Shown here in pieces: positions 55-6,197 of a stretch of DNA of 11,277 nucleotides. The DNA comes from an uncultured bacterium. Lineage in GTDB: Bacteria > Cyanobacteriota > Cyanobacteriia > Leptolyngbyales > Leptolyngbyaceae. How positions within the stretch are numbered: position 1 is the first letter of the stretch; the number at the start of each line of letters is the position of its first letter. Location: assembly GCA_964524315.1 (NCBI GenBank), contig CAZGDE010000232.1, positions 1 to 11,277 of the forward strand, written 5' to 3'. A program made the position numbers and the translations under genes. The notes under the pieces are model-generated. The model ran no database searches, was not told the origin of the DNA, and worked only from the letters and a program-made list of their open reading frames with translations.

Positions 55-378
55 ATGGCCGCACTGGCAGGCAACACAGATACACGGGGATGTGTATTGC
101 GGCTATTTGTCGCCGGGCCCAGCGCCGCGACGGAACGTACCCTATTGAACCTACACCAGTTGCTAGAACAGGCATTGGGACAACCCTATACCCTGAAAGT
201 CATTGACGTGACTCAACACCCAGAGCAGGCAGAACTGGATCAGGTCGCCGCAACCCCAACCCTGGTACGCGTATGGCCCCACCCTGTACGACGATTGGTA
301 GGAAGTTTAGACCAGGTAGAGCAGTTGCTATGGCTTCTGGGCGTGGGTGAAGCCAGCGATTATTCGGCTGCCGTTTGA
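55..378 (+). CDS. kaiB: KaiB-family circadian-clock-like protein (thioredoxin-like fold), 107 aa
   Basis: The translation aligns with KaiB along its length: [15 protein letters not shown] matches KaiB YxLKLYVAGNTPNS, [15 protein letters not shown] matches ALKVIDVLKNPQLAE, and [20 protein letters not shown] matches ATPTLxKxLPxPVRRIIGDL. A purine-rich GGAAACGGAAAG run lies upstream of the ATG. The reading frame is open back to base 1, so an N-terminal extension beyond the window cannot be excluded. The 3' end overlaps the convergent rph gene by 19 nt. Confidence 0.7.
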
Positions 379-1088
379 AAGGCTTGACGTTGCAGTTTGA
401 GTAGCTCCTGAATGCCACTTTCCGCCAGGTCAAGCATCTGATTCAATTGACTGCGACTAAAGCTGCCCGCTTCGGCAGTACCCTGAACTTCAATCAGGTC
501 AAGCTTTTCATTCATCACCACATTGAAGTCAATTTCTGCGGCCACGTCTTCTACATAATTCAAGTCCAGAAGGGGAACGCCCTCCAGTAGGCCGACAGAA
601 ATTGCTGCTACCTGGTGGCGCAGTGGCGATCGCTCCAGTTCCCCACTCTGTAGCAGTTTATTAATTGCCTCCTGAAGGGCAACAAACCCTCCAGTGATGG
701 CAGTTGTCCGGGTGCCTGCATCCGCCTGGAGAACATCGGCATCCACAATAATTGTACGTTCACCCAGAGCTGCCATATCCAGGGTTGAACGCAGACTGCG
801 CCCAATCAGACGTTGAATTTCCTGCGTCCGGCCCGACAGCCGCATAAACTCCCTTTCCTGACGTTCGGGGGTTGCTCCTGGCAACATCCGGTACTCGGCA
901 GTTAACCAACCCTGTCCTTTCCCTTCCAAAAATCGTGGCACTTTAGGCTGAATCGATACCGTACAGAGAACCTGCGTATCGCCAGACTTTGCCAGTACCG
1001 ATCCAGCCGCAAAGCGAGTGAACTGACGCTCAAAGCTAATCAGACGAAGTTGATCGGACTGCCGACCGTCAGGACGTTGCCAAGCCAT
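360..1088 (-). CDS. rph: Ribonuclease PH, 242 aa
   Basis: The translation is full-length RNase PH-like: GSVLxxxGDTxVLCT, [21 protein letters not shown], [27 protein letters not shown] and VEDxAAExDxNVVM are all present. The ATG overlaps the adk stop by one base (TAATG), which suggests translational coupling. Confidence 0.9.
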
Positions 1089-1666
1089 TAATTGCGTCTC
1101 CCCAGTTTTTGCAAGATTTCCTGTTGTACCTGATCGATCGCCTGATTCGCGTTGATCCGCAGCAAGCGATCGCGAAATTCATAATATTCCAACAGTGGCA
1201 GAGTACATTCTTGATACAGGTCAATCCGCCGTTGAATTGTCTCCGGGGTGTCATCGGCGCGGGCCCGCCCCAGCGATCGTTCCACCAGCACCGCCGGGGG
1301 AACATCCAACAGAATGGCATAGTCTAACTGCTGCTTCAGGTCGTCCAGCAAAAAATCTAGTTCCTCTGCCTGAAATGCCGTGCGTGGGTAGCCCTCCAGT
1401 AACCACCCCTGGCTGACATCGGGTCGCAGCAAGCGCTGGCGAATGAACTCAATCATAATTTCGTCTGGAACCAACTCGCCCCGAGCGACATATTGCTGCG
1501 CCTGTCGCCCCAGTTCCGTTTGGCTTTCCCCATCTGAATCCTGGACGGCGATCGCAGCCCGCAAAATATCGCCCGTTGAGATCCAAACAGTACCCAAGTC
1601 ATGGCGCAATCGCTCAGCCTGGGTTCCCTTCCCTGCACCTGGCCCGCCCAGAATTACCAATCTCAC
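1088..1666 (-). CDS. adk: Adenylate kinase, ~193 aa from a GTG start (the ORF-track ATG at 1753 would add 29 aa)
   Basis: The P-loop [16 protein letters not shown] sits at the canonical N-terminal position, followed by adenylate kinase core and lid features (LLDGYPRT-like [10 protein letters not shown]; RxDD as [10 protein letters not shown]). On the minus strand an AGGAGA motif lies 4 nt upstream of an in-frame GTG. Starting there gives [14 protein letters not shown], the usual adenylate kinase N-terminus. The ATG at 1753 would add an unconserved 29-aa leader. Confidence 0.85.
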
Positions 1667-1753
1667 AACCTGTTCTCCTGCTTTCTGGCTCAAGGCTATT
1701 CTGCCATCAAGTGAGGATCGTGCAGCGCCAGAGATCAAAGCGCTAGAAATCAC

Positions 1754-1884: not shown

Positions 1885-2421
1885 ATGGTTTCACAAGTCG
1901 AAATGCCTGCACTCAGTTCCAGTCAGCCATTGACGCATCGTATTGAGGGGTTAGTACAAGTTTTTACCTGTACCCATCGCAGTTTTTTTACCAGTGTCAT
2001 GGCGCAGGCGTTACGAATTGCTGGACAGGGTACACCCGTGCTGGTGGTGCAATTTCTCAAGGGAGGAATTGAGCAGGGGTATGAGCATCCCGTCCAACTG
2101 GGACAAAACTTAGATTGGGTGCGCTGCAACTTGCCTCGTTGTATTGATACACCCCATTTAGACCAAGAAGAAGCACAATCGCTGGTCGACCTCTGGCACC
2201 ATACGCGTCAGGTAGTCATGCAGGGGAAATATGACCTGGTCGTGCTGGACGAGCTCAGTCTAGCCATCAATTTTGGGTTAATTTCTGAAACGGAAGTGTT
2301 AGCATTTTTGCGCGATCGCCCCAGTCGCATTGATATCATTCTCACCGGGCCAGAGATGCCCACGGCCTTGCTAGACGTTGCTGATCAAATTACGGAACTT
2401 CGTCGTAGTCACCAACCGTAA
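1885..2421 (+). CDS. CobA/CobO/BtuR-family (corrinoid adenosyltransferase-like) protein with the Walker-A loop replaced, 178 aa
   Basis: The translation aligns with Salmonella CobA: GLVQVFTCTHRSFFTSVMAQALRIAGQGTPVLVVQFLKG matches [39 protein letters not shown], and DLVVLDELSLAINFGLISETEVLAFLRDRPxxIDIILTG matches DMVLLDELTYMVAYDYLPLEEVVQALNERPxxQTVIITG. The P-loop GNGKGKTT is replaced by CTHRSFFT. The gene lies 36 bp upstream of dcd on the same strand. Confidence 0.75.
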   Translation: MVSQVEMPALSSSQPLTHRIEGLVQVFTCTHRSFFTSVMAQALRIAGQGTPVLVVQFLKGGIEQGYEHPVQLGQNLDWVRCNLPRCIDTPHLDQEEAQSLVDLWHHTRQVVMQGKYDLVVLDELSLAINFGLISETEVLAFLRDRPSRIDIILTGPEMPTALLDVADQITELRRSHQP

Positions 2422-2457
2422 CCACACGATTACAGGAACATACTGAAGGAACATACC

Positions 2458-3039
2458 ATGATTAAAAACGATACCTGGATTACTGACATAGCGGCACAGG
2501 GAATGATTACCCCCTTTGAACCACGCCTAGTACGTCAGGTAGACGGTGTACCCGTCATATCCTACGGGCTGAGTAGTTACGGGTATGACCTGCGCCTGTC
2601 CCCCGCAGAGTTTCGCATTTTCCGCCATATTCCCGGTACCGTGGTTGATCCCAAACACTTCAATCCCGCCAATCTGGAACCGGCTGCACTTCATACAGAT
2701 GAAAATGGTAGCTATTTCATCCTCCCGGCCCATTCCTATGGTCTGGGAGTCGCCTTAGAACGACTGGAAGTGCCAGAAAACGTCACTGTCATTTGCATTG
2801 GTAAAAGTACCTATGCCCGGACGGGTTTGATTGCCAATTTGACTCCGGCTGAGGCTGGTTGGCGAGGTTATTTAACCCTCGAATTTTCCAATTCGTCCAG
2901 TGCCGACTGTCGTATTTACGCCAACGAGGGAGTCGTGCAATTACTCTTCCTGGAAGGTGCCCCCTGTGCTGTAAGCTATGAAACCCGTCGAGGCAAATAC
3001 CAGGATCAACCAGAGAAAGTCACACTGGCCAGAGTTTGA
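2458..3039 (+). CDS. dcd: dCTP deaminase, 193 aa
   Basis: The translation shows dCTP deaminase / dUTPase-superfamily features: SSYGYDLRL, FILPAHSYGLGVALERLEVPENV, GKSTYARTGL and GWRGYLTLEFSN. A GAAGGA motif lies 7 nt upstream of the ATG. Confidence 0.9.
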   Translation: MIKNDTWITDIAAQGMITPFEPRLVRQVDGVPVISYGLSSYGYDLRLSPAEFRIFRHIPGTVVDPKHFNPANLEPAALHTDENGSYFILPAHSYGLGVALERLEVPENVTVICIGKSTYARTGLIANLTPAEAGWRGYLTLEFSNSSSADCRIYANEGVVQLLFLEGAPCAVSYETRRGKYQDQPEKVTLARV

Positions 3040-3049
3040 GGTTGACCAG

Positions 3050-4516
3050 TCAAGACCACGATCGCACCACATCAAACCACCATGCCAATAGGTCTTCCCG
3101 CCGAGGGCTGCTATTCCGTTTGAGGCGGTACCATTCTGTTGCTGCCTCCCGAATGATAGTGGCAAAGGTGGTCGAGGGCATGGCCAGATTTGCCAGGCTA
3201 GAAATTTTGAGCTGGCGCTGCATGGCCAGGGCGATCGTGCCAATGATCTCGCTGGCCTGGGGTGACATCAGATGGGCTCCCAGAATCGTGCCGTTACGGT
3301 GCGCGATCAGCTTACACAACCCGGTCATATTGCCAGTAATCTGTGCCTGATCGAGATGGCTCAGGGGCGATCGCAGCACCCACACATTTTTACCGTAGGT
3401 CTGTAAAGCCTGAGTTTCCGTCATTCCCACCTGGGCAACTTCTGGATTGGTATAGGTCACCAGGGGAAGGTTTGTCCGGGAAAATTTAGCGATGGGAAAG
3501 AATAAGGCATTATTGACCGCAACATGCGCCCGTTGGATTTCTATCTGTGTTTGGGCATAGGTGTCAGGACTGGTGCAGGTGTAGATCTCGGTGGTCGCCG
3601 TATCATTAAAAAAGTTACAGGTAACGCCCATTGCAACTGGTTCTATATCTACCGCCGCCAAATTCAAAGCATCAACATCTGCTTCCCAGCCTGTAGCAAC
3701 AACAATGGCATCCGTTTCAATGGCCCGTCTACCTGCCTGTACCCATTTTTTTCCCTCAATCTGTCGAATTTGTGTTGGCACGATACCCGTTAACACCTCA
3801 ATACCCGCCGCTTCCAACTGCGCCTGTAGGAGTTGGGAAATTTCTGCATCTGCCGTTGGCAGAACGCTGTCCTCCGTACTAATAACCGTCACCTGTGCCC
3901 CTAACTGAGCGAATGCCTGGGCGATTTCAATGCCGGGTGCCTGTGTCCCTAGCACAACTAGTTTTTCTACCGCATGAAGGACATGGGGTTGCTCCAAAAC
4001 CTGGTTCACCGTGAAATAACCGCTGGGTTGCCCCCCGTCAATCGTTGGCATTGCTGGACGACAGCCCATCGCCAACAGATATGCCCGCGATCGCAACCGT
4101 CGCCCATCGACCACAAAACCAACCGTTGGCTTGCGGTAAAACTCCCCGACTCCAGAAATTACCTCAATTCCTAAAGAGGATAGGGTTGCAGGGGATTGGG
4201 CGATCGCTAAACTGGCGTTGACCGTCTTTGCCCATCTGCTTGCCTGTTGCCACAACTGACCTTGGGAAGAGGCGTTCAGCCATGCCGATGCTTGCCCAAT
4301 CCCCAACTGTTCCAACTGCTGTACCTGTTGCACAGCCCGTCCCAGTTCTTGCAATACTCGACTATTGACCTGGTCAGGGGCAGCAGTGCCAGATACAGTG
4401 CCAGATAATCTCTGCTCAACCAGGGCAACACGGGCTTGCAAGGTAGCTGCCCTGATAGCAGCATAAACACCTGCTGGCGTGTTACCAATTACAACAAGAT
4501 CGTAATCAACGGTCAT
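3050..4516 (-). CDS. Pyridine-nucleotide-disulfide oxidoreductase family protein (lipoamide dehydrogenase-like) with degenerate cofactor and redox motifs, ~489 aa
   Basis: The N-terminal Rossmann region is DYDLVVIGNTPAGVYAA. A second dinucleotide-binding region is LVVLGTQAPGIEIAQAFAQLGAQVTVI. The C-terminal interface segment GAHLMSPQASEIIGTIALAM matches the lipoamide dehydrogenase GAHIxGPxAGELIxEAALAM. The likely start is the internal ATG at 4516 (MTVDYD...); the ORF-track start at 4582 adds 22 unconserved residues. Confidence 0.75.
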   Translation of the reverse strand: MTVDYDLVVIGNTPAGVYAAIRAATLQARVALVEQRLSGTVSGTAAPDQVNSRVLQELGRAVQQVQQLEQLGIGQASAWLNASSQGQLWQQASRWAKTVNASLAIAQSPATLSSLGIEVISGVGEFYRKPTVGFVVDGRRLRSRAYLLAMGCRPAMPTIDGGQPSGYFTVNQVLEQPHVLHAVEKLVVLGTQAPGIEIAQAFAQLGAQVTVISTEDSVLPTADAEISQLLQAQLEAAGIEVLTGIVPTQIRQIEGKKWVQAGRRAIETDAIVVATGWEADVDALNLAAVDIEPVAMGVTCNFFNDTATTEIYTCTSPDTYAQTQIEIQRAHVAVNNALFFPIAKFSRTNLPLVTYTNPEVAQVGMTETQALQTYGKNVWVLRSPLSHLDQAQITGNMTGLCKLIAHRNGTILGAHLMSPQASEIIGTIALAMQRQLKISSLANLAMPSTTFATIIREAATEWYRLKRNSSPRREDLLAWWFDVVRSWS

Positions 4517-4748
4517 AACTTCGTATATGGCTGACCAAATCTTAGTTAAAGATTTAGCTTCACCCGTAAAATGCACCCGCACAGTAGCATGTAATTATTG
4601 CCGGGGGATCCCTTGAGGATCACAAAAGTACATACTACGCAGATCAGTTCAGCCCTGTGCAGGATTTTTTAACGCTGGAACAATTCATCATTAAAGTAAA
4701 GGCTTCCAGCATCACTAAGTTTTATTGCATCTCATAAGACTGAATCCT

Positions 4749-5292: not shown

Positions 5293-5338
5293 AGCAGTTC
5301 GCTCCGTCAACTATTCGCGGTAGCCGGAGCGAACTGCT
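5293..5338. other. Perfect 14-bp inverted repeat with an 18-nt loop overlapping the stop codon of the 5311..5592 gene
   Basis: The arms agcagttcgctccg (5293..5306) and cggagcgaactgct (5325..5338) are exact reverse complements. The right arm encodes the last 9 codons of the minus-strand small protein, and the loop contains its TAG stop. Confidence 0.35.
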
Positions 5339-5592
5339 GGATCGGGACTGCGATACGTCGTCTGGGTAGTTTTGGGTTTGCGGAATAGATTGGCCAAACC
5401 AATTAAACCGATTAACCCCAACCAACCTAAATTGTTATTATCATCCCGTGTTTCTTGAAAAGGCGTGGTATCCAAGGTAGGCGAATTGGGCGAGCTTTGC
5501 GCATGAACTGGCAGCGTTGCTGACAGCATGGTCAAACTCAGGGCCAATACCCCAGCCCCCAAGATTTTCTGAGAAGCATGACGTAACTGCAT
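5311..5592 (-). CDS. Small secreted or membrane-anchored protein with a Gly-zipper hydrophobic segment (paralogue 1), 93 aa
   Basis: The N-terminal Sec-type signal peptide is MQLRHASQKILGAGVLALSLTMLSATLPVHAQ. A Ser/Thr/Asp/Asn-rich linker follows, then NLGWLGLIGLIGLANLF and a basic stretch RKPK with a polar tail ending GYRE. A GAGGA motif lies 7 nt upstream of the ATG. It is a paralogue of the 5728..6003 gene. Confidence 0.6.
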   Translation of the reverse strand: MQLRHASQKILGAGVLALSLTMLSATLPVHAQSSPNSPTLDTTPFQETRDDNNNLGWLGLIGLIGLANLFRKPKTTQTTYRSPDPAVRSGYRE

Positions 5593-5727: not shown

Positions 5728-6003
5728 TTAGTAGCGAGAACTGGGATTCGTCACTTCATCACGATCGCGGTAGTGTACCGCCGGTGCCTCATTCTTCTTC
5801 GCCAAACCAGCCAGGCCAGCGAGACCCAACAAACCTAACCAGCCCCAATCAAAGTCCCGATCGCCAGCATCACGAGTGTCAGTCGTCGTATTAACATCCG
5901 GTGGTGCCGAGGTTTGGGCAGAAACAGACAGTGAGGGCAGCATCGCCACACTGAGCGCGATCGCGGCAGTAGCAAGCACTTGAGGTAAAGAATTAATTTT
6001 CAT
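5728..6003 (-). CDS. Small secreted or membrane-anchored protein with a Gly-zipper hydrophobic segment (paralogue 2), ~92 aa
   Basis: The start is taken at the ATG at 6003: a GGAG motif lies 9 nt upstream, and this start gives the signal peptide MKINSLPQVLATAAIALSVAMLPSLSVSAQ. After a TTTDTRDAGDRD linker come DFDWGWLGLLGLAGLAGLA, KKNE and a polar tail ending SSRY. The ORF-track start at 6063 adds 20 unconserved residues. Confidence 0.6.
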   Translation of the reverse strand: MKINSLPQVLATAAIALSVAMLPSLSVSAQTSAPPDVNTTTDTRDAGDRDFDWGWLGLLGLAGLAGLAKKNEAPAVHYRDRDEVTNPSSRY

Positions 6004-6197
6004 CGGGTTCATCTCCTGCAAGGGAATGTGCATGGTGGCTTTGCCAACAACCAACCATGACAACGTGATGCCCTAACATTAATTTGACCTGACTGACGGT
6101 TTAATCGCCCCTCAGCTAGAAAAGGGAGATACGAAGGACTGTGACTAAAGAATGAGAGGTTTTCTATCGTCACCGTAGCCACTATATCCAGTTCGTC

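Follow-up and report, generated by a model that had tools for sequence, protein, structure and literature searches.

A P-loop-less CobA-fold paralogue encoded beside dCTP deaminase in cyanobacteria: a putative accessory protein of DNA-precursor supply

The gene at positions 1885-2421 (forward strand) of contig CAZGDE010000232.1 (assembly GCA_964524315.1), an 11,277-nt stretch from an uncultured cyanobacterium of the Leptolyngbyaceae that we call the window throughout, encodes a CobA-fold paralogue, hereafter cobO2. Its residues indicate that it would be unable to act as a conventional ATP:corrinoid adenosyltransferase (CobA, CobO or BtuR), because it has lost the P-loop together with other invariants of the family, scores below the cut-offs of the models for CobA, and belongs to a family that coexists with an intact CobO (cobO1). 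The gene is persistently placed, usually in an operon-like arrangement, with genes of deoxypyrimidine metabolism. The reading that we put first, with confidence somewhat short of even, is that cobO2 is a non-adenosylating, neofunctionalised CobA pseudo-enzyme that serves as an accessory protein or regulator in the supply of deoxyuridine and deoxythymidine monophosphate (dUMP/dTMP) or of DNA precursors. The features on which this reading is built are as follows.

1885..2421, forward: cobO2-type CobA-fold paralogue, NCBIfam NF005648/PRK07414; intact open reading frame with ATG start, 178 aa
1885..1941, forward: N-terminal tail (residues 1-19), predicted to be disordered; a variable linker comes after the conserved peptide M-V-[AS]-Q-[LIV]-E
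1969..1992, forward: former Walker-A position, CTHRSFFT for GNGKGKTT, from the alignment to Salmonella CobA
2116..2148, forward: clade-specific motif W78-x-R80-C81-x-L-P-R85-C86-I-D88, standing where CobA has its F91/W93 corrinoid-lid loop
2194..2196, forward: W104, a clade-specific invariant Trp in helix 94-112 (100% in the P-loop-less group; Leu in 40% of canonical proteins)
2236..2256, forward: retained Walker-B-like strand LVVLDEL (D122, E123), from alignment conservation
2422..2457, forward: cobO2-dcd spacer of 36 nt that contains the ribosome-binding site GAAGGAA but no terminator, which fits co-transcription
2458..3039, forward: dcd, dCTP deaminase, 193 aa (PF22769; TIGR02274, 111 bits against a cut-off of 92.8)

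The membership of the protein in the CobA family along its length, as the initial annotation had proposed for this intact reading frame, is borne out by a match of residues 21-175 to CobA_CobO_BtuR (PF02572; 106 bits, cut-off 25.7; E 3e-30) and by alignment with Salmonella CobA (1g5r/4hut; phmmer E ~1e-13). The curated model NF005648/PRK07414 is matched over its full length (1-178 of 178) with 312.2 bits against a cut-off of 248, and the models for true CobA score below theirs (TIGR00708, 90.8 against 167.75; NF004637, 101.6 against 185). The predicted structure is the CobA fold, with a confident AlphaFold2 (AF2) model whose nearest folds after CobA are FlaH, KaiC, RecA, T7 gp4 and the Rad51 paralogues; residues 1-19 have a predicted local distance difference test score below 50. 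The peptide at the beginning of this tail is conserved among orthologues (M1 100%, Q4 100%, E6 96%), some of which carry 40-60 aa inserted behind it. When proteins P0122-P0134 were compared, the extreme N-terminus M-[VI]-[AS]-Q was kept and the linker behind it ranged from 0 to ~60 residues; P0126-P0128 and P0133 also carry long low-complexity C-terminal extensions with IPG[IL][ED]-like ends, reminiscent of the GI[ED][YF] tail of canonical CobA. Eukaryotic or plastid orthologues, suspected from matches of 222-353 aa, were rejected, as the extra length is either the linker inserted after MxxQ or a low-complexity C-terminal extension, with no transit peptide.

The Salmonella CobA P-loop segment aligns with the window protein across VFTCTHRSFFTSVMA (phmmer, 1g5r/4hut), so that G36, N37, G38, K39, G40, K41, T42 and T43 of CobA are paired with C29, T30, H31, R32, S33, F34, F35 and T36, respectively. 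At the key positions K39 is thus replaced by R32, K41 by F34 and T42 by F35, and T43 corresponds to T36. Neither a second G-x-G-K-G-K-[ST] loop nor a generic Walker A of the form GxxxxGK[ST] was found in the rest of the window protein; the blocks VVQFLKG, LVVLDEL and ILTG are retained. Both the loss of Walker A and the retention of these three blocks, as originally proposed from the sequence, therefore stand, but the change had been drawn too narrowly, for all the other catalytic invariants are altered too.

The extent of this remodelling was assessed by comparing 41 diverse P-loop-less representatives with 62 canonical representatives of the CobA family. Among the latter, G36, G38, K39, G40 and K41 are conserved at 100%, T42/T43 at 92-95% and K181 at 89%; E73, R161 and H182, conserved at 97-100%, are lost in the P-loop-less group. 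Their counterparts in the window protein are Y66 for E73, P156 for R161 and H176/Q177 for K181/H182, the last two being variable across the clade, and the C-terminal G[IL][ED][YF] tail of canonical CobA is missing from the window protein, which terminates in ELRRSHQP. Conversely, the P-loop-less group has gained W78 (100%), R80 (98%), W104 (100%), G60-G61 (93-95%) and Q64 (86%), and W78 and R80 are not conserved among the canonical representatives. All elements of the clade signature are present in the window protein, namely the missing P-loop, an Arg at the position of K39, W78-x-R80, W104 and GGxxQG. C81 and C86 are found in 100% and 94% of the main clade, respectively, and R32, R44 and R80 are conserved in the clade. 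F91 and W93 of CobA align to approximately C86 and D88 in NLPRCID, both non-aromatic, although the alignment of this loop is approximate and the loop varies between subclades. The Walker-B pair D122 and E123 is present in 100% of the main clade (81 sequences), but across the whole clade the Asp is kept in 83% and the Glu in 69% of the members, against 100% in canonical CobA, and some members have no Asp-Glu pair at all (e.g., VISEAG, LIVEDLG). In these alignments the old catalytic residues are erased, and the fold has acquired a new invariant set (W78, R80, W104).

Among 5.8 billion proteins searched, 1813 homologues were found; identity to the window protein is 74-100% for the best 120, and the named organisms among the homologues are all cyanobacterial except for two metagenome bins that are probably mis-assigned. 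These two are P0012 and P0023 (78-80% identity), labelled 'Verrucomicrobia bacterium' and 'Candidatus Sericytochromatia bacterium'; at the locus of P0023 (L010) the flanking genes are typical cyanobacterial rph and dcd, and the labels probably reflect mis-binned contigs rather than evidence of the family outside Cyanobacteria. When 1.84 billion cluster representatives were searched exhaustively with HMMER (2563 matches), every match above ~95 bits was without a P-loop, down to ~38% identity, and canonical G[ND]GKGKT[TS] proteins appeared only below that score. In a neighbour-joining tree all P-loop-less proteins form one clade on a long branch, which includes Prochlorococcus and was seen only in cyanobacteria. 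A candidate independent loss of the P-loop outside the phylum was dismissed, as those weaker metagenome matches that had missed the loop pattern all keep GK[ST] and a GIEY-type tail.

Within the clade the substitute motif FT[SC]xHR[SN]FFT is near-invariant, with R32, F34, F35 and T36 at 100% in 80 orthologues from separate genomes. The ratio of non-synonymous to synonymous substitution rates (dN/dS) is 0.03-0.11 in the seven pairs for which dS could be estimated, synonymous sites being saturated in most comparisons, and is similar to that of dcd and rph. Distances between cobO2 genes track those of rph (r = 0.94), and cobO2 is present even in a Prochlorococcus-like contig of 33% GC. By these comparisons the gene is vertically inherited and under strong purifying selection, and the 1813 homologues, their monophyly, the invariant motif, the low dN/dS and the retention in the Prochlorococcus-like contig argue that it is functional and not decayed. 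The initial annotation had preferred a conserved pseudo-enzyme or a protein of different function to a decayed gene, and the motif invariance and dN/dS support that preference; the substitution and the dcd linkage, moreover, are common to cyanobacteria from Nostocales to Prochlorococcus.

An intact adenosyltransferase coexists with cobO2 in nearly all picocyanobacterial genomes, which is the scope of this statement, as the organism of the window is represented by one 11-kb contig. The genuine cyanobacterial enzyme is the two-domain PRK07413 type (NF005647, cobO1) of ~345-400 aa; the cobO of cyanophage P-SS2, for instance, keeps both loops intact (GTGKGKTQ and GPGKGKST) and has GIDY at its C-terminus, and proteins of 383-400 aa that are closely related to it abound in picocyanobacteria. 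In the Cyanorak table (PMC9361551 supplement), cobO2 (CK_00000469) lies directly beside dcd (CK_00000470), between ntcA and txlA, cobO1 (CK_00000663) lies between pyrH and hemH, and almost all genome columns mark both genes as present. Coexistence in the same genome rests on this table, since the genomes named in the two homologue lists did not overlap; the Cyanorak order around cobO2 matches our loci of Prochlorococcus MIT 1341 and Synechococcus ROS8604. In Synechocystis, the annotated CobO slr0260 is canonical, as it is 42% identical to E. coli BtuR.

The second line of evidence is genomic context. The pairing with a dcd on the same strand, 36 nt after the stop codon of cobO2, is confirmed in the window, where rph and an adenylate-kinase gene on the reverse strand diverge from cobO2 and dcd on the forward strand and no terminator was found between the latter two. 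The window Dcd is closest to 4dhk/3km3 and belongs to the Burkholderia/Anaplasma type rather than to the bifunctional deaminase-dUTPase (DCD-DUT) type that has been characterised. Across 110 P-loop-less loci, dcd is directly downstream on the same strand in 76, distributed as follows.

Window, 80 genome loci and 2 picocyanobacterial genomes (83 loci): 62
Divergent members looked up individually (10 loci): 3
Metagenome loci (17 loci): 11

The gap between cobO2 and dcd has a median of 67 nt, and the junctions include TAATG overlaps (Prochlorococcus, Synechococcus), ATGA overlaps (L086, L022) and gaps of 4-6 nt; junctions of these kinds are usual signatures of translational coupling, which we infer here from the sequences. 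The linkage, which had been described for dcd, proved to be wider than this gene. A thyX gene lies within 0.6-3.6 kb of cobO2 in at least 24 loci, five of which (L087, L024, L037, L065 and L077) have a tight cobO2-dcd-thyX operon, and in the 33%-GC Prochlorococcus-like contig the two gaps of this operon are 4 and 2 nt. In 12 loci without dcd, a dCMP deaminase is found immediately downstream of cobO2 in convergent orientation, usually together with a 498-aa ThyA-like/pterin-binding DUF4346 protein; by its predicted gene content this cassette would be a non-homologous route to dUMP/dTMP at the same position. A few divergent copies, described below, are instead associated with replication genes. 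The annotated pairing was also said to lie outside any cobalamin pathway, and this is upheld: no cob genes and no nrdJ were found among the recurrent neighbours of 90 loci in an unbiased clustering of neighbouring reading frames, and neither a cobalamin riboswitch nor any other upstream Rfam element was found in the window and 11 other loci. Nor did the loci give any PADLOC match that would link the family to a defence system.

Several details of these loci are recorded here in their own right. The cassette in place of dcd occurs at L030 6662-9386 (reverse strand), and at L023, L040, L036, L046, L056, L067, L072, L002 and L098; in L023 the dCMP deaminase is fused to a nucleoside 2-deoxyribosyltransferase domain, and sometimes a DCD-like protein of 233-305 aa is present, with an HNH/AP2 endonuclease in addition in L030. 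The cassette could serve as another path to thymidylate, or else to modify nucleotides. In some filamentous cyanobacteria the ThyX near cobO2 is 600-690 aa long (L068 7393-9474, reverse; L024 5479-7287, forward), and in L068 an intein that contains an HNH endonuclease splits the Thy1 domain. A thioredoxin-like/AhpC-TSA protein (txlA in Cyanorak) lies just beyond dcd or thyX in L081/L082 and in 22 Nostocales-type loci, so that a redox protein travels with the cluster in both picocyanobacteria and filamentous cyanobacteria.

Taking these lines together, cobO2 would be made from one transcript with dCTP deaminase, and in many lineages also with ThyX, often with translational coupling; it would most likely have no catalytic activity of its own and would assist or regulate the dUMP/dTMP branch of DNA-precursor supply, and its Arg- and Trp-rich remodelled former active site would bind a partner protein and/or an anionic ligand, most obviously a nucleotide. 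A more specific form of this proposal, possible but doubtful in our judgement, is that cobO2 belongs, throughout the phylum, to the core machinery with which cyanobacteria make thymidylate and DNA precursors, and that it physically partners or regulates Dcd and/or ThyX or couples both to the replisome. If true, it would fill a gap in a pathway that a review of Synechocystis metabolism describes as not experimentally determined in cyanobacteria.

A number of observations weigh against this accessory role. The functional argument is drawn from synteny alone, and about 20% of the loci lack a neighbouring gene of deoxypyrimidine metabolism. Where the dCMP-deaminase cassette occurs, it is convergent with cobO2, not co-transcribed with it. 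In a mirror-tree analysis no specific co-evolution with Dcd was seen (partial r = 0.09, p = 0.17), and an obligate Dcd subunit is therefore not supported. The divergently transcribed rph is as frequent a neighbour as dcd, and a conserved position alone need not mean a shared function. The retained Asp-Glu pair could allow residual catalysis. Finally, five divergent members are located in settings that resemble mobile elements, with ssb, a UvrD-type helicase, DUF3854 proteins and others, and such replication-gene contexts fit a replication role as well as a role in deoxynucleoside triphosphate (dNTP) metabolism.

The first alternative is that the synteny is incidental, the protein having an unrelated housekeeping role at an ancient, stable position shared with rph and dcd. 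The equally conserved rph, which has no obvious shared function, the flat mirror-tree result and the ~10 of 83 genome loci that have neither dcd nor one of its substitutes all agree with such a view. It does not readily explain why a same-strand, overlapping or nearly overlapping junction has been kept from Prochlorococcus to Nostocales, why two non-homologous deaminase routes occupy the same position, or why thyX has been recruited to the same operon in separate lineages. Operon conservation is generally poor in cyanobacteria. We consider incidental synteny unlikely, though it deserves to be taken seriously.

The second alternative is an accessory role in DNA replication, in which a RecA-fold protein without ATPase motifs binds a replication protein or single-stranded DNA, and the linkage to dcd and thyX reflects co-regulation with precursor supply. 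It is prompted by the following divergent members.

L092 (P0152; copies at 1-345 and 4001-4621): neighbour a DUF3854 'replication/origin-binding/helicase' protein of 1068 aa; the two CobA-family genes are separated by 4 kb
L088 (P0157; 188-724): neighbour a zinc-ribbon protein with a weak DUF3854 match
L093 (P0137; 1640-2167): neighbour a UvrD/REP helicase, 22 bp upstream
L091 (P0139; 4001-4534): neighbours an HNH endonuclease and small reading frames
L085 (P0131): neighbour ssb

Two metagenome loci (L094, L095) repeat the pairing with the zinc-ribbon/DUF3854 protein. Binding of nucleic acids would be in keeping with the invariant Arg and Trp residues, and the folds that follow CobA in similarity to the predicted model, from FlaH and KaiC to RecA, T7 gp4 and the Rad51 paralogues, point in the same direction as the DUF3854, helicase and ssb neighbours. 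This context, however, occurs in only ~7 of the 110 loci and in the most divergent members, which may be mobile-element paralogues with a function of their own, and no replication gene recurs beside the chromosomal form. Nor was a phage or viral contig carrying the family found in INPHARED, where only the canonical two-domain P-SS2 cobO was present, or in IMG/VR. We hold a replication role to be improbable, though not negligible. Some of the mobile-element-like copies also have no Walker-B Asp-Glu pair.

A cobalamin-related role, as a corrinoid carrier, chaperone or sensor that hands, for example, (pseudo)cobalamin to a B12-dependent ribonucleotide reductase, appears to us quite unlikely. The CobA fold is kept, and cyanophage P-SS2 carries its genuine cobO together with ribonucleotide reductase, dcd and thy1, which links B12 adenosylation to dNTP synthesis in its hosts. 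All family-defining residues of the ATP site are nevertheless lost in cobO2, its N-terminal segment is predicted to be disordered, and neither a cob gene, nrdJ nor a cobalamin riboswitch is nearby. F91 and W93 are reportedly critical for the handling of cob(II)alamin, to go by the title of a structural paper on CobA; the aligned positions in cobO2 are not aromatic and lie in a loop that differs between subclades. Corrinoid binding is favoured by nothing in the sequence or the context.

With as little expectation we mention a new enzyme of the pathway, e.g., a pyrophosphatase for dUTP or other dNTPs that would provide dUMP to ThyX by means of an Asp-Glu metal site and the new Arg residues. The complete conservation of D122-E123 in the main clade and the conserved R32, R44 and R80 are compatible with such a site. 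As the window Dcd is not of the bifunctional DCD-DUT type, a dUTPase step may be needed, and the review of Synechocystis metabolism lists no dUTPase in the pathway. E123, however, falls to 69% across the whole clade, and the pair is gone in some members. We also know of no precedent for hydrolysis by a P-loop fold without Walker A. That the gene is a pseudogene in decay, or that its P-loop codons contain a sequencing error or a frameshift, as a run of seven T within them (nt 1983-1989) might suggest, has virtually no probability, because the substitute motif is near-invariant in 80 orthologues, with both Phe residues at 100% in these independent genomes, and dN/dS is low, quite apart from the full-length match to a curated equivalog model and the confident AF2 model; the P-loop loss is common to the whole clade, down to ~33-38% identity.

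The accessory reading can also be set against known systems. With CobA/CobO/BtuR (EC 2.5.1.17; PF02572; Salmonella 1g5r, 1g64, 4hut) cobO2 has homology and fold in common, but it is without the G-x-G-K-G-K-T-[TS] loop, E73, R161, K181/H182 and the C-terminal tail, has WxRC..RCID in place of the F91/W93 loop and W78, R80 and W104 as new invariants, and stands outside a cobalamin gene context in genomes with an intact CobO. The two-domain cobO1 (NF005647/PRK07413) belongs to the same Pfam family, phylum and genomes; unlike cobO2, it has tandem CobA domains, both P-loops intact, a GIDY tail and a position between pyrH and hemH. The window protein is a member of NF005648/PRK07414, the cobO2 of Cyanorak (CK_00000469), and has the same place beside dcd as in picocyanobacteria. 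SulA, Elp4/5/6 and Rad51 paralogues of the XRCC2 type are RecA-fold binding or regulatory modules without ATPase motifs, and may serve as an analogy of principle, with no specific sequence relationship to cobO2.

That cobO2 is separate from CobA is already recognised at the database level, where NF005648 bears the name 'P-loop NTPase family protein', the enzyme name having been removed by curators. Cyanorak still calls cobO2 an adenosyltransferase, as do the annotations of the P-loop-less orthologues of Prochlorococcus and marine Synechococcus, and the picocyanobacterial orthologues fall below the NF005648 cut-off (153 bits against 248). A full-text literature search found no paper on the P-loop loss, the dcd/thyX operon or the function of PRK07414/cobO2; thus the fold and the database family are known, and the role is probably new. 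Mis-annotation of cobO2 as a B12 enzyme is widespread, and genome or metagenome surveys of B12 biosynthesis will double-count these organisms if they tally matches to PF02572 or 'cobO'. Beyond annotation, a core gene kept in streamlined genomes and fixed before dcd (and thyX) would point to an unrecognised DNA-precursor factor in oxygenic phototrophs, among them Prochlorococcus, the most abundant phototroph, and cobO2 offers a clean case of a P-loop enzyme turned into something else.

Two genes upstream of cobO2 in the window recur at other loci.

360..1088, reverse: rph (RNase PH), conserved divergent neighbour (TIGR01966, 358 bits)
1088..1753, reverse: second adenylate-kinase paralogue, divergent from the 131-bp region 1754-1884 (PF00406; NF001381, 194 bits against 187)

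The rph gene is the divergent neighbour in 57 of the 80 genome loci, and also in Prochlorococcus, Synechococcus and 13 metagenome loci. The adenylate-kinase paralogue is upstream in 53 of the 80 and is missing from the picocyanobacterial arrangement; it starts with GTG, is longer by ~30 residues at the N-terminus and overlaps rph by 1 nt, and no other gene of the cluster is conserved so little (51-72% identity). Further upstream, a KaiB-domain protein below the cut-offs for true circadian KaiB is encoded at 55-378 (forward), its 3' end overlapping the convergent rph by 19 nt.

On the other side, a homologue of pyridine-nucleotide-disulfide oxidoreductases at 3050-4582 (reverse) is convergent with dcd, the two stop codons lying 10 nt apart. 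It has no redox-active Cys pair, for GTVSGTAAP-DQVNSR stands opposite GTVGGTCVNIGCVPSK of MerA. In place of the first GxGxxG it has the degenerate IGNTPAG, and it scores far below all NCBIfam cut-offs. As the Cys pair is lost and the gene recurs beside dcd in 13 loci, it may be a second disabled enzyme of this neighbourhood. Two adjacent small proteins encoded at 5311-5592 and 5728-6063 (both reverse) have signal-peptide-like N-termini and no Pfam match, and share a hydrophobic G-W-L-G-L-[IL]-G-L-x-G-L motif near the C-terminus.

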